A DNA stretch of 64,000 nt, from the NCBI GenBank assembly GCA_045126855.1, contig JBGVPG010000008.1:66158-130157 (forward strand), written 5' to 3'. The stretch is from Eubacteriales bacterium (GTDB taxonomy: Bacteria; Bacillota; Clostridia; Oscillospirales; CAG-272). The notes beneath the pieces are model-generated. The model made no database searches. It saw only the letters and a program-made list of their open reading frames with translations, and was not told where the DNA came from. This document shows, one piece after another, positions 9,039 to 47,345 of the stretch (position 1 is the first letter of the stretch; each line of letters begins with the position of its first letter). A program made the translations under genes and the position numbers.

Positions 9039-9272
9039 TTATTTGGTTTTGAGCCCCATTATGTCCTCTTCCTTCCAGTTGTAAAGCATGGCAGGACACT
9101 GACCGCCTATCTGAATGGTATAGCTGACCTTGCCGTCTTCACCGACGAAGGCCTCATATATGTATCCAAAACAAAGGTCACCTCTGCGCTTGAAATTTAC
9201 GAAGTCGCCTTTCTTGTACTTTGCTATTTCAGGGTAGGTTTCCTTTTTCTTAAAAAGCTTATCAAAAAACAT
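9039..9272 (-). CDS. hypothetical small protein (77 aa)
   Basis: ORF with GGAGG-type RBS (aaaggaggtatacgatATG on minus strand); no motif recognised. Confidence 0.5.
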   Translation of the reverse strand: MFFDKLFKKKETYPEIAKYKKGDFVNFKRRGDLCFGYIYEAFVGEDGKVSYTIQIGGQCPAMLYNWKEEDIMGLKTK

Positions 9273-9394: not shown

Positions 9395-11824
9395 ATGATT
9401 AACGTTGATAAAATACTTAGCGAGCTGACGAGGGAGGAAAAGGTTTGCCTTCTCTCGGGCCACAAATCCTGGTTTACCAATAAGGTCTCCCGTGTCGGCC
9501 TTTCTCCGATCATGCTGACCGACGGACCCCACGGCCTCAGAAAAAAGCGGATGGATGATAAGCAGGCAGGCCTCGGTCAGACCGAGCCGTCAACCTGTTT
9601 TCCTGCGGCGTGCACAAGTGGCAGCACCTGGAATAAGGATCTGCTTTATAAATTGGGCGTCGCTATGGGCGAGGAATGCCGTTATTATGACGTAAATCTA
9701 ATTCTCGGTCCTGCCGTAAACATTAAGCGTAACCCCTTCTGCGGCAGAAATTTTGAGTATTTTTCCGAGGATCCTCATATTGCAGGTCAGCTTGGCGCTC
9801 GCCTCACTCGTGGAATTGAGGATATGGGCGTCGGCACCAGCGTGAAGCACTTTGCTTGCAATAATAACGAGGCTAACCGCTATTTCGGTGACTCTATCGT
9901 CGACGAGCGTGCCTACCGTGAGATATACCTCAAGGCGTTTGAGCCTATAATCAAGGAGGGCAGACCTCAGACGGTTATGTGTGCCTACAACAAGGTAAAC
10001 GGTGTCTACGCCTCCGAAAATCACCTACTTCTTACCGAGATCCTTCGAGATGATTGGGGCTTTGAGGGACTGGTTATGTCTGATTGGGGCGCGGTAAACG
10101 ATAGGGTAGAGGGACTCAAGGCAGGACTTGACCTTGAAATGCCGGGCGACGTCAGCTACAACCGACAGGTCATTCTCGATGCGTTGAACGATGGAAGCCT
10201 TGACGACGAAACTCTTGACAGAGCCGTTCGCCGAGTGCTGAATATGATCTACAACACCACCGTTAGTGCAGGTAAGCTGCCCGATAAATTTAACGATCAT
10301 TCCGAGCTTGCAAAGGCTATCAGCGCCGAGGGTGCGGTTCTTCTCAAAAATGAAGGCAAAATCCTTCCGCTTGACAATACGGCACAGTATTTGGTTGTTG
10401 GTGAGATGTTTAACAAAATGCGTTATCAGGGCGCAGGCTCTTCGCTTATTCGCCCCTATAAGCTCACCTCTCCCAAGGATGCCTTTGATGCCAACGGCAT
10501 CAGATACGAGTACTGCAAGGGCTATGACCTGGATTCCTTTGAAGCAGACGGTGAGCTTGTCAGTCGTGCAACCGAGCGTGCCGCAAGCTACGATACAATC
10601 CTGTTCTTTGGCGGTCTTTCGGAGGATGCCGAAAGCGAGGGCTTTGACAGAGAGACCCTTTCTTTACCCAAAAACCAGCTGGAGCTTCTTCTTGCGCTTG
10701 CAAAGAGTGGCAAGAAAATCGTCTTTGTGATGTACGGCGGCAGCCCCGTTGATATGAGCTTTGACCGCTCTGTTGACGCCATTCTTAATATGTATCTCCC
10801 CGGTCAGAGTGGCGGTGAAGCTACCCACGACCTTCTCTTTGGTAAGGCAAATCCCTCGGGCAGATTGGTTGAGACCTGGCCCGTGTCCTACGATGACGTT
10901 CCCTTCGGTGAGGAGTTCACCCTAACCACCAACGATAGATATAAGGAGAGCATTTTCGTCGGCTACCGTTATTACACGAGCTTTGATATGCCCGTGAAGT
11001 ATCCCTTCGGCTACGGCCTCTCCTACACCGATTTTGCATACAGTAATATGACCGCCGAGGTCAGCGATAATACGGTACACGTTGAGGTTGACGTCGAGAA
11101 CATAGGCGATCGTGACGGTGCTACTGTTCTGGAGATATTCGTCAATGCTCCAAAGAGCGAGGTTATTAAGCCTCTCAGAGAGCTTCGTGGCTTTGATAAG
11201 GTATATCTTTCGGCAGGCGAGAAAAAACGTGCCTCGGTGGATATCCCCGTGGATAGCCTTCGCTATTATATTGATGGTGACTGGCGACTTGAGGGCGGCG
11301 AATACACCTTCGAGCTCTGCCTGGATGCAAATACACCGATTATCTCTGCAAAGGCTCATATTGATAGCCACGAGCAGGTGAGGGAAAATGATATCTACAT
11401 CCAGCTTTACGGCTCTGACTATAAGAGATTTCTCTCTATCACCGACGAGGAATTTGACCGCCTTATAGGCAGGGAAATAGCCTCTCCCGAGGTGACACGC
11501 CCCTATGATCTCAACACCCCTATGCGTTCCTATCGCACGGTGGGAGGACGTATGCTCTTCGGTATGCTTAACTTCGCCTTCAAGACCGCATACAATATGG
11601 AGAAGCTGGGGAAGAATACTCCCGATAAGGAAACCCGTGTTAAGAATGCCTACTTTACCTGGAGGACAATTAACTCCATGAGTCTCAGATCGATCTGCTA
11701 TTGCAGTGAGGGCAGGCTTTCTCACCAGCTTGCAGTTTTCCTTCTCGATATTGCAAACAATCATCCCATAAGGGCCATTGGCAGGCTCTTTAAACCCGAG
11801 AAGAATATAAACCTTCCCGAATAA
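9395..11824 (+). CDS. glycoside hydrolase family 3 beta-glucosidase
   Basis: 809 aa; GH3 N-domain (LTDGPHGLR, KHFACNN), nucleophile block VMSDWGA, C-terminal beta-sandwich region. Confidence 0.9.
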   Translation: MINVDKILSELTREEKVCLLSGHKSWFTNKVSRVGLSPIMLTDGPHGLRKKRMDDKQAGLGQTEPSTCFPAACTSGSTWNKDLLYKLGVAMGEECRYYDVNLILGPAVNIKRNPFCGRNFEYFSEDPHIAGQLGARLTRGIEDMGVGTSVKHFACNNNEANRYFGDSIVDERAYREIYLKAFEPIIKEGRPQTVMCAYNKVNGVYASENHLLLTEILRDDWGFEGLVMSDWGAVNDRVEGLKAGLDLEMPGDVSYNRQVILDALNDGSLDDETLDRAVRRVLNMIYNTTVSAGKLPDKFNDHSELAKAISAEGAVLLKNEGKILPLDNTAQYLVVGEMFNKMRYQGAGSSLIRPYKLTSPKDAFDANGIRYEYCKGYDLDSFEADGELVSRATERAASYDTILFFGGLSEDAESEGFDRETLSLPKNQLELLLALAKSGKKIVFVMYGGSPVDMSFDRSVDAILNMYLPGQSGGEATHDLLFGKANPSGRLVETWPVSYDDVPFGEEFTLTTNDRYKESIFVGYRYYTSFDMPVKYPFGYGLSYTDFAYSNMTAEVSDNTVHVEVDVENIGDRDGATVLEIFVNAPKSEVIKPLRELRGFDKVYLSAGEKKRASVDIPVDSLRYYIDGDWRLEGGEYTFELCLDANTPIISAKAHIDSHEQVRENDIYIQLYGSDYKRFLSITDEEFDRLIGREIASPEVTRPYDLNTPMRSYRTVGGRMLFGMLNFAFKTAYNMEKLGKNTPDKETRVKNAYFTWRTINSMSLRSICYCSEGRLSHQLAVFLLDIANNHPIRAIGRLFKPEKNINLPE

Positions 11825-11830
11825 TAAAAA

Positions 11831-11854
11831 TGACCTAAGCCACGGCTTAGGTCA
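11831..11854. terminator. bidirectional terminator between GH3 and NUDIX genes
   Basis: TGACCTAAGC / GCTTAGGTCA stem, loop CACG; overlaps NUDIX stop codon. Confidence 0.65.
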
Positions 11855-12374
11855 TTATTTCTTTAGCTCTTGTGAGAATAGGCAATTCACGGTTGGCAAT
11901 CAATCTTCCAAGGCGTGAGTCCTTGGAGTTTTCGTACTCAGCCACAGCCTTGTCATAGGTCAATCTCATTGTCGTGAGATGCCAGGTATTTATCTCATCA
12001 TCGGTCATATTTTTTTCGCCAAAAGATATGACTCGGCATAGAAAGTAGTTGTTGATATTATGCCTGTGAATGAGGTTGTAATAATCCTCAACAACACCGA
12101 TTTTACAAACGACCTCAACCTCGACTCCAAGCTCCTCCCGAAGCTCTCGGCGAATTGCAGAAATCAACTCCTCGCCCTTTTCAACACCACCGCCCGAGGT
12201 CTCGATTATGGAGCATTTGCCGAAGTCGTCGTCACGCTCTGCGTGTACGAAGTAAAAGTATCCCTCATCATCATAGACAATAGCCCTCACGATCTCTCTG
12301 TCGTGGTCTATGTATTCAAATGGCCACTCGTTATCCACGAGGGAAATGTGTAATTCATTAGGATTCATTTTCAT
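11847..12374 (-). CDS. NUDIX hydrolase
   Basis: 175 aa; Nudix box GGGVEKGEELISAIRRELREELG. Confidence 0.85.
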   Translation of the reverse strand: MKMNPNELHISLVDNEWPFEYIDHDREIVRAIVYDDEGYFYFVHAERDDDFGKCSIIETSGGGVEKGEELISAIRRELREELGVEVEVVCKIGVVEDYYNLIHRHNINNYFLCRVISFGEKNMTDDEINTWHLTTMRLTYDKAVAEYENSKDSRLGRLIANRELPILTRAKEIMT

Positions 12375-12481
12375 TTTTGACTCCGTGATTTGCTATTTCC
12401 AGGCGCTTGCCCACACTCTTCATTCTGAGATAACCTCCGTATACTTTTTCTTACACCGACCTCGTTACGATTGTTTTACTA

Positions 12482-12510
12482 ATTATACCACACCTCGGGA
12501 AATAAATCAA
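12482..12510 (-). promoter_or_regulatory. sigma-A type promoter of NUDIX gene
   Basis: minus strand TTGATT (12510-12505), 17 nt, TATAAT (12487-12482) with TG extension; the -35 lies in the B'' remnant. Confidence 0.45.
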
Positions 12511-12528
12511 GTCTATCCCGTTTCCTAT
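12488..12528 (-). repeat. internally deleted copy (B'') of the B module
   Basis: minus strand ATAGGAAACGGGATAG...CTTGATTTATTTCCCG matches both ends of B (47005-47097); ~57 nt missing inside. Confidence 0.6.
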
Positions 12529-12587
12529 CCAGGTAAAGACCTTGCATAAAAATAAAGACCAAGATTTTCATCCTGGTCTTTACCTGG
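12529..12587 (-). repeat. palindromic module A' (copy of sequence that follows the tRNA-Leu CCA end at 46942-47004)
   Basis: 12548-12590 is a perfect 43-nt reverse-complement match to 46939-46981; contains terminator hairpin AAAGACCAGGAT/ATCTTGGTCTTT + T-run on minus strand. Confidence 0.85.
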
Positions 12588-12592
12588 TGCGC
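12585..12592 (-). repeat. displaced partial tRNA-Leu 3' end (GCGCACCA on minus strand)
   Basis: 7 of 8 nt identical to the CCGCACCA end of the tRNA, and directly abuts module A' as the genuine CCA end does at 46944. Confidence 0.7.
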
Positions 12593-12636
12593 CAGAGAAG
12601 ATAATGTACGAACCTTTTGTAGAGAATTATTTAAGA

Positions 12637-15264
12637 TTAATTCCAATGAGAAACCTTATATTTCTTTCCCATGGCCTTTTCATTGAAAGTGATATAAGAA
12701 CGCTTTCTGCATTTTAAAATCAGCCGCCTGCCGTCCTCACGATGCGTATAAACAGGCTCAAAGTTGCCCGTTGTGGCTTTCAATTTTTTCGCCAACACCT
12801 CTACATACTCTTTCTTTTTGCCAATAATAGAAGGGCAAGCGAAAGAAAGCTCATAGTTATAGCGTTTGAATATGTTTTTAGAAATCAAGATATAACGAGG
12901 ATTTTCAATAGGCGAAAGCATTTCTGCCATAGCCGTATTGAAAACATTTTGATCGTGAATCGATGCGTTTCTCAAATGTAAAGCAACGACATAGAGTTGT
13001 TTGTGCGCAGTTGTTTCAACCTTTGCAGAGGATGATATCAGATCACATTCGTACAGTGTCTTATAAACGGCAACACCAAGCGTTTTGATTGAGTTGGCCG
13101 GATTGAAATGCAACACCATCTTCTTTACACCATGGTATAAAACAACAAACAATCCAATCATCACCGCAAGAGTTCCCAATGTCATCGGAACGTTATTGTT
13201 CGCAATCAGCCTCATTAATGGTTGCAATAATAAAATTTCTGTTGCAACAATAATTGAATTCAATGCGAAATTCCAAAATGTAAATACTGGAATTCTTGCC
13301 TCTTTTGGAATTTCAGTTTCTACATCGACCGCAAAGCTTCCGTCTGCCACTTCTCCACGCCACTTGTTTTTTACTTCGCCGCGGTCGGCAGACAGTTTTA
13401 GCATTTCCTCGTTAATTCGTTCGATGCCGTTTTTATCATAAGGCAGCTTGATCAAGGTAATTCGCTCAATTCCGCTCTCAATCGTCCCAGTAGAATAATT
13501 AGGTCCCATAAAGGAATCGAAGCGGCGTTTTAAAATATCATAGTCATATGAATGGAGCTCCTTGTAATCCTCTTTAAGGTATGCAGAGATCCTTTCCGTA
13601 GCTTTATCTTTGAACAAATATTCCGGTTCAACCGTTACGAGATGCCATATATTCGCCGATTTATCGGGATCGTTTTTGTCAATGCGAATCGCACGTCCGC
13701 GCATTTGGTTGGACAAAACGAAGCTACCGACAAAGCTTGCTAAAATAAGCGAGTTAATGCAAGGGGAATCCCATCCTTCACCGAGAAGCGATTTTGTTCC
13801 GATGAGTATTTGGATTTTCCCCTCCTCGAACAACTTTCCAACGTAATCAACGCCTCGATGGAGTGCTCCTGCAAATTCAACCGTACAGTAATCGGTATCC
13901 GCAATATCCTCTTTTTTGTGTTTAATATCTGAAAGATCAACGGATCTTGGAAGAATAACGAGAGATCCCGAAAGAACTCCGATGTTTACGTTCAAATTTG
14001 CACGACGGAGAGTTTCAAAAATGCTGACGATATTCACCGAATTGAATTCTTCAGCAGATGCAATTTTAGTAAGATTCTCTTTCTTGATATAATCGGTAAG
14101 GACGAGCATACGAAGTCGCTTACCCATTGCCGAAACTTCATTGGAAGCGATACGCTTTATACTCTCAAGCTTTCCTACCGATGAGATAAGAGTTCTTTTC
14201 AAACGCTCGTTCAGATCAAGCGTGACCTTCTTTTTCTCATAAACAGAATGATCCTTTAAAATCGAAATGATCTCTGCTTTCTGTTCTTCAGTAAGCAAAT
14301 CTCCGTTAAGAAGAAATCCGATTGCCGTTTCGGCATACTGCATTTTAAACGTGGGAAGTCCTCTTTTGGCGGTAAGCTCGCGAATCAGTTTATTATCAAT
14401 TTCAAAGCCATAATATTTAAGCAACGTTACAAGAGCTATATATTGCTTGGCATCCGAAAACAGTATATCGTAGTCCCGTTCTGCATTTAAGGATTGACAT
14501 ACATGATCAAATAGATCAAGCTTTCCGAGATCCGCCACAGCAAGTAATGCACGCTCCTTGTGGGTACGGAAGCTTTCTATTTCCAATTCTGTCGGATAAT
14601 TGAAGTACACATAATCCTGATGCGGACACAAGGTGTTTTGACCGACAAGCTCAGGAACGAAAATCTCTTCGTCAATCTCGCCGCAGATGTTCATATATCT
14701 GCTCCACTCAGAGCCTTCAGAATCATACGGAGGCGTAGCTGTGAGAGAAATGATTTTCACATCTTTGTCAAGTGCAGAAATGAATTTTTCAAGTGCCTTC
14801 TGCCACTCGTTTTTGAGATGATGCGCCTCATCAAGACATACGGTTTTTATTCCGAATTCTCTCATAGTAGCAAAGATATCAACATCAGAGCAGTCAATAT
14901 CCTCGTATTCGGTTGCAGATACCTTATCTACAGCAGTGTATAAAGCTTGATATGTTATCGAGTTTACAAGCTTGATATTATGTAGGTCGTTCGAAAAGAG
15001 GACTGGAAAATCCTCTAAATTATCAAGAAACAGATCCTTAAATCTTTCTCCCCACTGCTGGCGAATTGCTGTTGTAGGCGACAAAACAATGCAAGGTGAA
15101 CCCAAACGGCGAATCAATTCAATACCGAGAACAGTTTTTCCACTACCTGGTGCAGCTACAATATTGATTTTTCCGTCTTTAAGATACTTTTCAGCATTTC
15201 TAAGGACGCGTTGCTGATAGTCGCGAAAACTACCCTTAAAATGAACTTTATCAAAATTCGGCAT
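12637..15264 (-). CDS. SF2 (DEAH, ResIII-type) helicase with internal membrane hairpin and unassigned C-terminal domain
   Basis: 875 aa from ATG 15264 (RBS GAGGTGAG; track ORF starts 15279). Walker A AAPGSGKT, DEAH LDEAHH, TATP, motif VI QMRGRAIR. Two hydrophobic helices (FTFWNFALNSIIVATEILLL, TLGTLAVMIGLFVVLY). Confidence 0.85.
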   Translation of the reverse strand: MPNFDKVHFKGSFRDYQQRVLRNAEKYLKDGKINIVAAPGSGKTVLGIELIRRLGSPCIVLSPTTAIRQQWGERFKDLFLDNLEDFPVLFSNDLHNIKLVNSITYQALYTAVDKVSATEYEDIDCSDVDIFATMREFGIKTVCLDEAHHLKNEWQKALEKFISALDKDVKIISLTATPPYDSEGSEWSRYMNICGEIDEEIFVPELVGQNTLCPHQDYVYFNYPTELEIESFRTHKERALLAVADLGKLDLFDHVCQSLNAERDYDILFSDAKQYIALVTLLKYYGFEIDNKLIRELTAKRGLPTFKMQYAETAIGFLLNGDLLTEEQKAEIISILKDHSVYEKKKVTLDLNERLKRTLISSVGKLESIKRIASNEVSAMGKRLRMLVLTDYIKKENLTKIASAEEFNSVNIVSIFETLRRANLNVNIGVLSGSLVILPRSVDLSDIKHKKEDIADTDYCTVEFAGALHRGVDYVGKLFEEGKIQILIGTKSLLGEGWDSPCINSLILASFVGSFVLSNQMRGRAIRIDKNDPDKSANIWHLVTVEPEYLFKDKATERISAYLKEDYKELHSYDYDILKRRFDSFMGPNYSTGTIESGIERITLIKLPYDKNGIERINEEMLKLSADRGEVKNKWRGEVADGSFAVDVETEIPKEARIPVFTFWNFALNSIIVATEILLLQPLMRLIANNNVPMTLGTLAVMIGLFVVLYHGVKKMVLHFNPANSIKTLGVAVYKTLYECDLISSSAKVETTAHKQLYVVALHLRNASIHDQNVFNTAMAEMLSPIENPRYILISKNIFKRYNYELSFACPSIIGKKKEYVEVLAKKLKATTGNFEPVYTHREDGRRLILKCRKRSYITFNEKAMGKKYKVSHWN

Positions 15265-15293
15265 ACTCTCACCTCTCATTATTTTCTAAAACA

Positions 15294-15322
15294 AGTATAG
15301 CACATATTTCCAAATAATGCAA
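15294..15322 (-). promoter_or_regulatory. sigma-A type promoter of helicase gene
   Basis: minus strand TTGCAT (15322-15317), 17 nt, TATACT (15299-15294). Confidence 0.5.
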
Positions 15323-15323
15323 C

Positions 15324-15351
15324 AAAAAAGCAATTCTTCAAGAAGAATTGC
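15324..15351 (-). terminator. intrinsic terminator just upstream of helicase promoter
   Basis: minus strand GCAATTCTTC TT GAAGAATTGC followed by TTTTTT. Confidence 0.7.
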
Positions 15352-15405
15352 ATTAAATAATTAATTTATCCAGCGATTTGAATACCAAAGTAATCCCTTG
15401 TAAAG

Positions 15406-15440
15406 AAAAAGTACAAACCCTGATTACTCTGGGTTCGTAC
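15406..15440 (-). terminator. intrinsic terminator after module B'
   Basis: minus strand GTACGAACCC / GGGTTTGTAC stem (G-U pair) followed by TTTTT. Confidence 0.6.
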
Positions 15441-15449
15441 TATACTGTT

Positions 15450-15541
15450 TGGTGCGGGAAATGTCAGGCGTTAAGAAAACTCTTGATAAGAGTTTTTAGC
15501 CTGAAGACTGAAGCGATAGCTGAAGTCTGTCCCGTTCCCGC
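15450..15541 (-). repeat. module B' (92 nt; tRNA-end mimic with hairpin and triple CTTCAG repeat)
   Basis: minus strand starts GCGGGAA, ends TTCCCGCACCA; homologous to 47008-47097 with compensatory changes in the central hairpin. Confidence 0.7.
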
Positions 15542-15560
15542 TCAACAAAAAAAGCAGACC

Positions 15561-15710
15561 GTGGAAACGGGATCTTGAATGGAGTTCGTTTACGAACTCC
15601 ACTAAGTTTTCTTTGACGGTTAGACACCGTCATTTTGCAATGCAAAAGCAGAAAACGTTAGCCCGTAAGTTTGCCTACGGCAAACAACGGGTTCTTCGTC
15701 ACCGTTCCAC
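15561..15710 (-). other. module D' (150-nt multi-hairpin element closed by GTGGAACGG / CCGTTTCCAC)
   Basis: nested hairpins GTTTGCC/GGCAAAC, GACGGT/ACCGTC, GGAGTTCG/CGAACTCC; 3' end TTCAAGATCCCGTTTCC resembles tRNA T-arm/acceptor; tail ACGGTCTGCTTTTTTT. Confidence 0.5.
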
Positions 15711-15715
15711 GCAAA

Positions 15716-15750
15716 CAAAAAGAGGTCAACCCAAAGGTCAACCTCTTTTT
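15716..15750 (-). terminator. intrinsic terminator (C') directly after tRNA-Leu
   Basis: minus strand AAAAAGAGGTTGACC TTTG GGTTGACCTCTTTTT. Confidence 0.75.
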
Positions 15751-15752
15751 GT

Positions 15753-15836
15753 TGGTGCGGGAAACGGGACTTGAACCCGTACATCAAAGATACACGCCCC
15801 TCAAACGTGCGCGTCTGCCGATTCCGCCACTCCCGC
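15753..15836 (-). tRNA. tRNA-Leu (anticodon GAG), type II, CCA encoded
   Basis: acceptor GCGGGAG/TTCCCGC, anticodon stem CACGT/GCGTG with loop TTGAGGG, 12-nt variable arm, T-arm ACGGG-TTCAAGT-CCCGT; 84/84 identical to 46861-46944. Confidence 0.95.
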
Positions 15837-15848
15837 GAGCGCTTTACT

Positions 15849-15877
15849 ATTATAAAGCATAATATTTAATTTGTCAA
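15849..15877 (-). promoter_or_regulatory. sigma-A type promoter of tRNA-Leu copy 1
   Basis: minus strand TTGACA (15877-15872), 17 nt, TATAAT (15854-15849), 12 nt before mature 5' end. Confidence 0.6.
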
Positions 15878-15947
15878 TACCTTTTTAATAAAAAAATAAA
15901 AAAATTATTACATTGTCTGACAAATCTATAAGCCGTGGAAATTTCGG

Positions 15948-15976: not shown

Positions 15977-15996
15977 CAATGCCAACGGAGGGTATT

Positions 15997-16905
15997 ATGA
16001 AGGATTATTTAAACGAAATTAATGATAAATTTCCCATAAGGAAATCTGACAAAGAAAAACAGGCTTTTTACGACTACGTTGCTTCAGATCTCGGATGTGA
16101 CAGGGTGAAGATTGAGCAGCTTGAGAACAACAATAACATTATTATTGGCGATCCGTCGAGTGCGAAGGCAATTTTTACAGCGCATTATGACACACCTGCA
16201 TCATCTCCTATGCCAAACTTTATGATTCCTGCAAACAAGGTTCTTGGAACCTTGATTAATTTCTGCTATCCCTTGGCAGTTGCGATTATCAGCCTGCTTT
16301 TGGGATTTGGTGTAGGTGACTTGCTTGGGTTTGATAACAACGAGTGTGTGCTTTTATATCTTGTATTTTATTTTTCCATATTTTTCTTTACGCGACTTGT
16401 ACCGAACAAGCATAACAAAAATGACAACACCTCGGGTGTTGCCACGGTAATGTCTATCGCTGCGAAATATAACAATGAAAAAGTAGCGTTTATCCTTTTT
16501 GACAACGAGGAAAAGGGTCTTCTTGGTTCGAAGGCGTATAACAAGAAATACAAGAAGATGATGGAAGATAAACTCCTAGTAAACCTTGACTGCGTTGGCA
16601 ACGGCGATCAGATTGTGCTTATTCCAAAGGAAAAAATTATTGATTCCGAGGAGTATAAACTTCTATCCGAGGTATTCTCGGGTGATACGGACGGCTTTAG
16701 TGTGCATCAGATTCCATTCAAAAAGAGTCTCGGAAACTCCGATCACAAGAGCTTTCCCGGTTCGGTTGGAGTTATGGCGGCAAGAAAGGGAAAGGTGCTG
16801 AAGCTTGTTACCGGCAGAATCCACACTGCAAAGGATACCATGGCTGACAGTAAGAATATTTTGTTTCTCTCTACTCGATTTGGCGAGTTTATCGATAGGC
16901 TATAA
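15997..16905 (+). CDS. membrane-associated M28-family metallopeptidase
   Basis: start moved to ATG 15997 (GGAGGG RBS; ATG 15979 lies about at the TSS); motifs HYDT, DNEEKGLLGS, internal TM helices. Confidence 0.75.
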   Translation: MKDYLNEINDKFPIRKSDKEKQAFYDYVASDLGCDRVKIEQLENNNNIIIGDPSSAKAIFTAHYDTPASSPMPNFMIPANKVLGTLINFCYPLAVAIISLLLGFGVGDLLGFDNNECVLLYLVFYFSIFFFTRLVPNKHNKNDNTSGVATVMSIAAKYNNEKVAFILFDNEEKGLLGSKAYNKKYKKMMEDKLLVNLDCVGNGDQIVLIPKEKIIDSEEYKLLSEVFSGDTDGFSVHQIPFKKSLGNSDHKSFPGSVGVMAARKGKVLKLVTGRIHTAKDTMADSKNILFLSTRFGEFIDRL

Positions 16906-46768: not shown

Positions 46769-46820
46769 ATATTTATCCCCGAGAAACAAAAATTCTCGGG
46801 GATTTTTTTGTAAAAAGCTA

Positions 46821-46849
46821 TTGACAAATGGAAAACTATGTGATATAAT
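46821..46849 (+). promoter_or_regulatory. sigma-A type promoter of tRNA-Leu copy 2
   Basis: TTGACA 46821-46826, 17 nt, TATAAT 46844-46849 with TG extension; 11 nt before mature 5' end. Confidence 0.6.
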
Positions 46850-46860
46850 ATCAAATGTTC

Positions 46861-46944
46861 GCGGGAGTGGCGGAATCGGCAGACGCGCACGTTTGAGGGG
46901 CGTGTATCTTTGATGTACGGGTTCAAGTCCCGTTTCCCGCACCA
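46861..46944 (+). tRNA. tRNA-Leu (anticodon GAG), type II, CCA encoded
   Basis: same cloverleaf as 15753-15836 (identical sequence). Confidence 0.95.
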
Positions 46945-47004
46945 GGTAAAGACCAGGATGAAAATCTTGGTCTTTATTTTTGTTTATGCCTGGTCTTTAC
47001 CTGG
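46942..47004 (+). repeat. palindromic module A (perfect 16-bp inverted repeats enclosing a terminator)
   Basis: CCAGGTAAAGACCAGG 46942-46957 and CCTGGTCTTTACCTGG 46989-47004; inner hairpin AAAGACCAGG/CTTGGTCTTT + ATTTTT. Confidence 0.8.
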
Positions 47005-47007
47005 ATA

Positions 47008-47097
47008 GGAAACGGGACAGTTTTCAGGCAAGCCTTCAAACTTCAAGCTAAAAACGATTATCAATCGTTTTCTTAACGCTTGACATTTCCCGCACCA
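47008..47097 (+). repeat. module B (90 nt), ends in TTTCCCGCACCA
   Basis: homologous to complement 15450-15541; hairpin 47051-47071; repeats TTTCAG/CTTCAA/CTTCAA at 47022, 47034, 47041. Confidence 0.7.
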
Positions 47098-47104
47098 ACA
47101 AAAA

Positions 47105-47131
47105 GAGCAGACCAATCGGTCTGCTTTTTTT
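47105..47131. terminator. bidirectional intrinsic terminator (C)
   Basis: A-run, GCAGACC AAT CGGTCTGC, TTTTTTT. Confidence 0.75.
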
Positions 47132-47139
47132 GTTGGTAT

Positions 47140-47244
47140 GGGGACGGGCTTGAAGGGGAAGCGGTAGTGAATGACAGTCCGGTGGACTGTCAGAGCCGCG
47201 GAAGACCGAGCGCGTAGTTCGCGCGAGAATCAAGTCCCGTTTCC
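47140..47244 (+). other. module D (105-nt structured element closed by GGGGACGGG / CCCGTTTCC)
   Basis: internal hairpins GACAGTCC/GGACTGTC and GCGCG/CGCGC, GCGG/CCGC helix; 3' end TCAAGTCCCGTTTCC identical to tRNA T-arm/acceptor; tail ACGGTCTGCCTTTTTTT. Confidence 0.5.
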
Positions 47245-47345
47245 ACGGTCTGCCTTTTTTTCTTTGTGAAAATGTATAAATGGGATATTTTTCGATACGA
47301 TCCTGTACTTGTTTATTCATTGTATTACCTCGATAAGATGGGAAA

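Follow-up and report, generated by a model that had tools for sequence, protein, structure and literature searches.

The stretch of DNA analysed here (hereafter the window) comprises 64,000 nucleotides (nt) from the genome assembly of a Eubacteriales bacterium (GCA_045126855.1; contig JBGVPG010000008.1, positions 66,158 to 130,157). One gene on its minus strand encodes an 875-residue protein in which a superfamily 2 (SF2) helicase motor is followed by a putative membrane hairpin and a basic C-terminal domain. This layout had been pointed out in an initial annotation made from the letters of the window; that observation is confirmed by the present analysis, and the interpretation that accompanied it is partly supported. 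The extents of the gene, of its domains and of its flanking signals are collected in Table 1. The longest open reading frame (ORF) at this position is intact, spans 12637..15279 and would specify 880 residues. Of the best 120 homologues, nearly every one has 871 to 882 residues (mostly exactly 875), and the sequence GAGGTG is sited 5 nt before the ATG at 15264. The latter is therefore likely to be the start codon used, as the initial annotation had called it, and translation probably does not begin at the in-frame ATG at 15279. Most likely the gene is monocistronic. Terminator-type hairpins border it on both sides, as had been claimed, with the downstream one strong and the upstream one (15330-15351, 66 nt before the start) weaker, at -9.6 kcal/mol and z -2.4 by RNA folding. 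Within the upstream region, a promoter-like TTGCAT (15322-15317), a 17-nt spacer and TGc-TATACT (15302-15294) were recognized by eye, although the promoter scan did not list these hexamers; a second promoter-like site, at 15467-15439, came from the scan. An Rfam search returned nothing except tRNA, and no regulatory RNA was found in the helicase leader.

Table 1. Position and basis of assignment of the helicase gene, its predicted domains and its flanking signals (AF2, AlphaFold2; pLDDT, predicted local distance difference test; KD, Kyte-Doolittle hydropathy; aa, amino acids).
Feature	Residues (aa)	Position in window	Strand	Basis
Complete coding sequence, putative membrane-anchored XPB-like SF2 ATPase	1-875	12637..15264	minus	875 aa; stop 12637-12639; ORF list
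RecA-like lobe 1	1-225	14590..15264	minus	ResIII/DEAD matches; columns invariant in 71 sequences
All-helical insertion between RecA lobes (~155 aa)	226-380	14125..14589	minus	AF2 helices 226-383, pLDDT mostly 80-93
RecA-like lobe 2	381-545	13630..14124	minus	Weak Helicase_C match; invariant columns; Foldseek
Conserved cytoplasmic linker domain (predicted)	546-641	13342..13629	minus	Alignment invariants; AF2 helices 555-563, 573-583, 611-639
Flexible tether (predicted)	642-662	13279..13341	minus	AF2 pLDDT <50; conservation 0.28
Putative membrane helix 1	663-687	13204..13278	minus	KD maximum 1.69; family median 2.02; AF2 helix
Hairpin loop NNNV	688-691	13192-13203	minus	Four residues; would face outside
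Putative membrane helix 2	692-718	13111..13191	minus	KD maximum 2.09; family median 2.51; K/R-rich exit; AF2 helix
Basic C-terminal alpha/beta domain (predicted)	719-865	12670..13110	minus	AF2 domain model (722-865 in the full-length AF2 model); conserved motifs
Intrinsic terminator 3' of the helicase gene		12541..12583	minus	Hairpin 12552-12583 + U-run; -23.4 kcal/mol, z -4.6
Upstream region with hairpin, U-run and promoter-like site		15294..15351	minus	Hairpin 15330-15351; hairpin + U-run 15324-15351

The N-terminal part of the protein has the hallmarks of an SF2 motor: motifs I, II (DExH), III, V and VI are distributed over two RecA-like lobes. Pfam detected ResIII at residues 12-179 (6.8e-18), DEAD (3e-11) and a weak Helicase_C at 477-528. 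The four motifs quoted in the initial annotation (AAPGSGKT, 37-44; LDEAHH, 144-149; TATP, 175-178; QMRGRAIR, 520-527) were invariant or nearly so in an alignment of 71 homologues sharing 41-94% identity. In lobe 1, R-x-YQ (14-17), motif I AAPGSGKT and motif II LDEAHH are accompanied by a motif III that reads TATPPYD (175-181) and by a conserved stretch, CGEIDEEIFVP...LCPHQDY..F..PT, at 194-225; lobe 2 carries motif V (GTKSLLGEGWDSP, 489-501) and motif VI QMRGRAIR. Family conservation in the helical insertion between the lobes was 0.37, compared with 0.6 for the lobes themselves. An AF2 model of the full protein, built from 71 sequences, reached a mean pLDDT of 79.6 and a predicted template modelling score (pTM) of 0.72. 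The complete SF2 core claimed earlier is thus present, but its extent had been put at ~620 residues, whereas the core proper ends at ~545 and residues 546-641 make up a separate linker domain.

Two kinds of search pointed to XPB. When the whole model was compared with known structures by Foldseek, archaeal XPB was the top match (6p4f_C, 1.4e-12), followed by Hef, MDA5/RIG-I, Mot1, Chd1 and CSB, all of which are duplex-tracking motors; matches to lobe 2 were to XPB, Hef, RIG-I and Snf2 cores. When a profile of 67 diverse family members was run against all Protein Data Bank (PDB) sequences, only XPB/Rad25 chains were matched (best 2.9e-13). Because the top fold match and the family profile agree, we call the motor XPB-like, and archaeal/eukaryotic XPB is its closest relative as judged by sequence and predicted fold. 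It has the R-x-YQ, DEAH and TAT-type motifs of XPB/Rad25/Ssl2 and, as in these, a strand that connects both lobes. It is not an XPB orthologue, however. The XPB equivalog model NF045503 scored 28.9 bits against a cut-off of 610 and covered only residues 12-112, the sequence match to XPB being limited to ~100 residues of lobe 1; the other NCBIfam matches, to UvrB and HsdR, were likewise partial and sub-threshold. XPB proteins possess a RED motif after motif III, a thumb insertion and an N-terminal damage-recognition domain. In the present protein TAT is followed by PPYDS, in which P179, Y180 and D181 are invariant, so that PYD stands in place of RED, and there is no N-terminal extension ahead of R-x-YQ (residue 14). 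Moreover, it has a 155-residue helical insert between the lobes, its linker, hairpin and C-terminal domain are absent from the matched XPB chains, and no Bax1-like nuclease gene adjoins it. SNF2-rel_dom was also matched above its cut-off (30.6 bits; cut-off, 24.9), but over only 139 of 290 profile positions and overlapping the stronger ResIII match.

Downstream of the motor, the linker domain matched no Pfam family and yet contains ten invariant residues in the family (R581, F582, F585, P588, R601, P608, I617, N618, R628 and W635). The two strongly hydrophobic helices reported in the initial annotation were found where it had placed them (residues ~660-718; nt 13111-13287). Hydropathy was measured on the Kyte-Doolittle scale with a 19-residue window; in 70 of 74 full-length representatives hydrophobic peaks reaching up to 3.2 occurred at the hairpin position, mostly two of them, with one in about ten proteins. 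The hairpin is the least conserved segment of the protein (0.25-0.27 among 67 aligned members), and nonetheless the mean hydropathy of its two helices across the family was 1.46 and 1.85. N665, at the start of helix 1, was the only conserved hairpin residue (at least 90% of 71 sequences). The loop in the family is mostly 6-9 residues long with few charges, and the 15 residues past helix 2 contained on average 3.4 lysines or arginines, compared with 0.36 aspartates or glutamates (67 members). AF2 likewise placed two long helices after a disordered tether. Two hydrophobic helices of at least 20 residues, a short loop and positive-inside flanks are the pattern predicted for a helical hairpin with both termini inside, and a cytoplasmic placement of both ends is also what an ATPase requires. 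Since the segment is variable in sequence, always hydrophobic and flanked by positive-inside charges, the hairpin is predicted to be a real membrane anchor with both of its ends in the cytoplasm. Given this charge distribution, the C-terminal domain would lie next to the motor, both of them at the membrane's inner face.

One family member, P0147 (842 residues), has cleanly lost a stretch of ~50 residues corresponding to the hairpin and has kept the linker and the C-terminal domain. Because only the hairpin was lost, it would be an added anchor lying outside the catalytic unit. P0147 is a natural soluble variant that could serve biochemistry. We also weighed whether the hydrophobic helices might instead be buried in an oligomer or domain interface of a soluble protein. 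In favour of burial, helix 1 in the window protein has only moderate hydrophobicity and includes E677 and Q681; a packed interface should, however, be conserved, and these helices show the lowest conservation of the protein, together with high family medians of hydropathy, a positive-inside charge pattern and a position after a disordered tether in the AF2 model. The helices thus behave as a membrane anchor would, and we hold burial in a soluble protein to be very improbable.

The C-terminal domain, when modelled by itself with AF2 from 29 sequences, gave a pLDDT of 88.8 and a pTM of 0.81, with the element order a-b-b-a-b-b-a-b-a-a. It is basic (pI 9.7; family median 9.85) and is marked by F775, LSPIxNPRY (783-791), SFACP (807-811), YT(R/H)xxxGR (839-846) and C852; P811 is invariant. 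The description of this region as basic and unassigned held throughout. Nothing consistent was found when the domains of 34 members were compared with Pfam, a profile of the domain matched no PDB sequence, and PHROGs gave no match; the best fold matches had E-values of 0.59 in the PDB (TM at most 0.26) and 0.34 among the viral folds of BFVD. No well-known domain with an established role was therefore recovered, either from the AF2 model or from the fold searches. A nuclease in this domain was considered and rejected: the alignment contains no invariant acidic residue, which makes a metal-dependent nuclease unlikely, no pattern of the PD-(D/E)xK type is seen, and no nuclease fold was matched.

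A basic domain next to an SF2 motor could also belong to a membrane-associated RNA helicase acting in mRNA decay or processing or in the translation of membrane proteins, with the C-terminal domain binding RNA. The b-a-b-b-a-b unit in this domain occurs in RRM/ferredoxin-like folds, as far as topology can be read from element order only, and the Foldseek matches include the helicase cores of RIG-I/MDA5 and Dicer. The sequence signals are nevertheless of the ResIII/XPB type (R-x-YQ, DEAH, TATP), the sole sequence-level relatives in the PDB are XPB proteins, neither a DEAD-box Q-motif nor an RNA-helicase family model appeared above threshold, and no RNase or ribosome gene was linked to the family in the neighbourhoods described below. 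We accordingly regard an RNA helicase as unlikely. DNA is most likely the substrate, by analogy with the duplex-tracking relatives.

The breadth of the family was examined by searching residues 546-875 against 1.84 billion representative sequences (clusters at 50% identity). At E<=1e-3 there were 809 clusters, of which 492 passed E<=1e-10. Among the full-length matches nearly all had 830-1055 residues, with the aligned region at the extreme C-terminus, and the domain layout is fixed over at least 490 clusters of a large, mainly Bacillota family. Proteins consisting of the hairpin and the C-terminal domain only were rejected as a separate class, because the short matches begin at internal methionine residues (for instance that of MRGRAIR) and so represent gene-calling artefacts. 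At least 574 species-representative genomes encode a relative. The carriers are Clostridia, Bacilli, Erysipelotrichales, Acholeplasma-like bacteria and a few outliers, among them Lachnospiraceae, Oscillospiraceae, Acutalibacteraceae, Christensenellaceae and Ruminococcus, as well as uncultured Bacilli, Erysipelotrichaceae, Acholeplasmataceae, Izemoplasmatales and Haloplasma. Cultivable carriers include Paenibacillus cellulositrophicus KACC 16577 (WP_152404286.1) and Haloplasma contractile. One member, P0115, was present in 193 index blocks and is stable in abundant gut species. Relatives carry no more specific source name than "DEAD/DEAH box helicase family protein" or "superfamily II DNA or RNA helicase". 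The words "transmembrane helicase" in one preprint were set aside as a slip for "helices".

An origin from phages or plasmids was rejected. Two matches, both on unannotated faecal contigs, were found among the phage genomes of INPHARED, and 3 of 2.9 million IMG/VR contigs were matched, two of them at contig ends. In the plasmid collection five full-length relatives were found, all on large replicons that are non-mobilizable and belong to Paenibacillus, Chondrinema (Bacteroidota) and Tritonibacter (Alphaproteobacteria).

The gene always stands alone. The contexts of close homologues were wholly different from one another, as were those of two annotated cultured carriers. When 821 ORFs from 92 loci were clustered all against all, the commonest neighbour family, an ABC transporter, occurred in 9 of the 92 loci; a conserved partner gene was thus rejected. 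Pfam matches among the neighbours included EF-Ts, PGI, catalase, AsnA, methyltransferases and response regulators, that is, neighbours that are of a housekeeping kind yet differ between loci, which is not the arrangement of a core gene in a conserved neighbourhood. A NUDIX gene (11847-12374, minus strand) lies directly downstream of the helicase gene in the window, and one lies two genes downstream in Paenibacillus cellulositrophicus (L093 12713-13489); NUDIX genes are absent from the recurrent neighbour clusters, and the shared neighbour is probably a coincidence. Mobile or phage DNA was found within a few kilobases (kb) of the helicase in some relatives and is not family-wide: L011 (1-5900) encodes a D5_N primase, two DNA methyltransferases and an IceA-like endonuclease; L008 (1-7500) a GDSL-lipase-domain protein, a PG_binding-domain protein and a Tad2-like gene product; and L002 (800-5500) Macro, faint SIR2 and BppU_N proteins.

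The ResIII signal raised the question of a motor subunit from a type III or type I restriction system (Res or HsdR), since ResIII is the best Pfam match and weak matches to HsdR-type models exist. Such a subunit was rejected. No methyltransferase or specificity gene neighbours the helicase in the window and none recurs in the 92 loci, the protein has no nuclease domain, and the NCBIfam HsdR/EcoAI models scored far under their cut-offs.

To survey the neighbours for defence genes, 298 of them from ~80 loci were scanned with PADLOC (PADLOC-DB v2.0.0), 148 being the nearest genes on each side and 150 being second or third neighbours from a subset of loci. About 8 of the 148 and about 10 of the 150 matched a model; the matches were scattered and mostly generic (four mad2, two DEDDh, an HTH, one PDC-S01, one PDC-S05 and one ShosA/PsyrA, the last of which may be a DprA-like housekeeping protein). 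Guilt by association was rejected as support for a defence function. The expectation that homologues would be enriched beside defence genes, tRNAs or prophages was likewise not borne out, with only ~18 of 298 neighbours matching PADLOC, most of the family loci containing no tRNA (see below) and phage genomes almost free of the gene. No PADLOC model matched the helicase itself at E<1e-3; PbeA (0.0019), DinG (0.0052) and Cas3b (0.0088) gave short, partial matches. This agrees with the initial annotation, which had likened the architecture to none of the helicase-containing defence systems that it named. Nothing in the neighbourhoods ties the gene to known defence systems, and a defence role is possible but unsupported.

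These data bear on the proposal that the gene is a single-gene abortive-infection system, in which the helicase would sense phage nucleic acid and either the hairpin, by oligomerizing, or the C-terminal domain would be toxic. Two-helix membrane effectors are common in bacterial immunity, the gene is single with its own promoter-like site and terminators, it shows signs of horizontal exchange, and it adjoins a strain-variable spot, with prophage or restriction-modification DNA nearby in L008 and L011. Weighed against these features are the PADLOC results for both the helicase and its neighbours, a hairpin that lacks conserved residues other than N665 (as fits an anchor rather than a pore) and is dispensable in the P0147 lineage, and the absence of any variation in effector domains across the family. 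Abortive infection is, in our judgement, unlikely, slightly more so than the RNA helicase considered above.

Evidence for horizontal exchange came from several directions. Compared with locus L010, the synonymous divergence (dS) of the helicase gene was 0.41, with a ratio of nonsynonymous to synonymous divergence (dN/dS) of 0.07; by contrast, dS of the six syntenic flanking genes was 0.77 (iPGM), 1.47 (ParE/GyrB-like) and above 2.5 (the other four). The GC content at third codon positions (GC3) of the helicase gene, 0.39, was the second lowest of the 43 ORFs in the window (z -1.7). The coding sequence, together with ~180-270 nt upstream and ~40-50 nt downstream, was 88-91% identical in three unrelated contexts, and the region beside the helicase varied between strains carrying an identical protein. 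Protein identity was also discordant with taxonomy, a metagenome-assembled genome (MAG) of the Bacilli showing 59% and several Lachnospiraceae 37-38%. An attempt to compare empty sites by way of the LysM/CAP neighbour in metagenome contigs returned relatives that shared no other syntenic gene; in exact look-ups, the M28 protein of the window was found on one short contig and the helicase protein returned nothing. Low dS, low GC3, differing contexts and discordant identities together point to a single-gene unit that has been moving between genomes, the dS argument being approximate. The initial annotation had considered the context typical of accessory or defence functions: these signs of exchange lend some support to the accessory part, whereas the defence part finds no support, given housekeeping neighbours and no enrichment.

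The gene had further been described as the only cargo of a tRNA-associated insertion, which does not hold. A tRNA-Leu(GAG) gene is present at 15753-15836 (minus strand) and a second one at 46861-46944 (plus strand). The 12-nt sequence of the tRNA 3' end, TTTCCCGCACCA, occurs four times in the window (15450-15461, 15753-15764, 46933-46944 and 47086-47097), compared with 0.3 expected, exact copies lying ~300 nt downstream of the first tRNA and ~150 nt downstream of the second. What this repeat brackets at the helicase locus is only 285 nt of non-coding sequence (15462-15745), absent from L010-L012; no further copy exists beyond the helicase (beyond 12637), and no integrase gene was seen among the annotated neighbours. 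In three contigs encoding a 94%-identical protein (91% nt identity), the same tRNA directly abuts the sequence whose start in the window is 15461. Because the repeat bounds 285 nt and the tRNA adjoins the helicase in related contigs, the insertion is a non-coding one and not an island carrying the helicase; the segment looks like a scar or a miniature insertion at an att-type site. In the family, a tRNA was directly upstream in 4 of 60 loci, and none lay in the fetched locus (up to 8 kb on each side) in 49 of 60. The tRNA-island model was rejected.

Other local rearrangements were noted. Relative to L010-L012, the block containing the tRNA and the helicase (region 9395-15895) is inverted; on one side of it lies a conserved gene for a 77-residue protein (9039-9272) and on the other the M28 peptidase gene (15979-16905). 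Only the window has, in this region, a GH3 glycosidase gene (9395-11824) and the NUDIX gene mentioned above. No flanking repeats that would explain the inversion were found. The two tRNA-Leu(GAG) loci (15440-15900, minus strand; 46800-47260, plus strand) share the promoter, the tRNA and a ~100-nt downstream element that ends in CTGACATTTCCCGCACCAA, and both carry a degenerate T-arm-like piece, TCAAG(A)TCCCGTTTCCACGGTCTGC, with a T-run behind it. This similarity suggests that the tRNA module was duplicated or that integration took place repeatedly. Elsewhere in the window, three pairs of ORFs of 400-1050 residues lie on opposite strands and overlap nearly completely (42746-44152/42767-44056, 48289-49554/48382-49629 and 49692-52850/49755-52820); in each pair, one ORF is presumably a shadow of the other.

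Taken together, the architecture and topology described above can be put forward with high confidence: a stand-alone XPB-like motor, an internal membrane hairpin and a basic cytoplasmic C-terminal domain. For the function we tentatively favour, at somewhat less than an even chance, a membrane-tethered ATP-driven translocase on duplex nucleic acid, likely DNA, which would handle DNA entering or attached at the membrane. In such a scheme the motor would translocate on duplex DNA in the manner of its XPB, Hef and Snf2-type relatives, the basic C-terminal domain would hold nucleic acid or an anionic membrane surface, and the hairpin would only confine the activity to DNA located at the membrane. 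Our leading guess for the process served is the handling of such DNA, for example the exclusion or remodelling of incoming foreign DNA; that the role is directed specifically against incoming DNA is doubtful, at perhaps one chance in a few. A narrower version, more speculative still, casts the protein as a hitherto unrecognized kind of barrier or handler of DNA in a single polypeptide, whose XPB-like motor at the inner face would engage entering phage, plasmid or transforming DNA and whose C-terminal fold would act as a clamp on the DNA or the entry site. If true, it would be a nuclease-free mechanism of defence or exclusion without a known homologue.

The strongest competitor is a role in maintenance of the cell's own genome, where an anchored XPB-like motor would act on the cell's own DNA at the membrane in repair, in clearing stalled transcription complexes or R-loops on genes coupled to membrane insertion, or in chromosome handling. 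XPB, the nearest characterized relative, is a motor of repair and transcription; the neighbours are ordinary housekeeping genes; purifying selection is strong, as the low dN/dS shows; the architecture is invariant across Clostridia, Bacilli, Erysipelotrichales, Acholeplasmataceae and Izemoplasmatales; phages, viral contigs and mobilizable plasmids are nearly devoid of the gene; and many samples of one species yield an identical protein. This possibility is nevertheless weakened by the 92 loci, where genes of repair, replication or division show no conserved association with the helicase, by the signs of horizontal exchange and atypical composition, and by identities that depart from taxonomy, and we consider it plausible at rather less than even odds. 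We rank first an accessory gene, exchanged horizontally, whose product handles or excludes DNA at the membrane; genome maintenance comes a close second, and the other explanations are less likely.

Several points weigh against the function we favour. The uniform architecture, the low dN/dS and the stable presence of the gene suggest a cellular function more readily than an immune gene of rapid turnover, and no defence enrichment was seen among the neighbours. No acidic residue of the C-terminal domain is invariant, and neither a nuclease nor any other effector domain was found in the protein. The choice of DNA over RNA is drawn by analogy, the topology is read from hydropathy, charge and AF2, and the low dS could partly stem from atypical codon usage instead of transfer. 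In the literature we found neither a paper describing such a protein nor biochemical or genetic data for any member.

Comparison with other systems helps to place the protein. The helicases of Hachiman (HamB), Gabija (GajB), Zorya (ZorD), Druantia (DruE), DISARM (DrmA), Mokosh, Hna and Nhi are, like the present one, large SF1 or SF2 motors, and Hna and Nhi are single-gene systems as well; the present gene differs in having no PADLOC match at E<1e-3, no partner genes, no nuclease and no defence-island context. Zorya and Kiwa are membrane-associated, DNA-targeting defence systems. In other defence systems the membrane part and the motor reside on separate proteins, whereas here they are joined in one polypeptide. 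FtsK/SpoIIIE and the coupling proteins VirD4/TraD offer a functional analogy only, that of an ATP-driven DNA motor held at the membrane. They are anchored by N-terminal helices and are hexameric P-loop ATPases of the FtsK/HerA type, not SF2 proteins; by contrast, the protein described here has an internal anchor and an SF2 motor, matches no Pfam FtsK or T4CP family and is not on conjugative elements.

To our knowledge, bacterial SF2 motors are soluble, and the few membrane-anchored DNA motors that we know of (FtsK/SpoIIIE and the coupling proteins) belong to another ATPase class. The protein keeps a known type of enzyme in a new architecture, and the large family that it represents appears to be unstudied; in it, a motor of the XPB type would be permanently tethered to the membrane and fused to a confidently predicted domain that is unmatched among solved structures and viral models. 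This layout is conserved over hundreds of clusters in Bacillota of the human and animal gut. The identity of its substrate would add a new way of spatially confining helicase activity, and could reveal either a new housekeeping step in the handling of DNA at the membrane or a nuclease-free way of dealing with incoming DNA.

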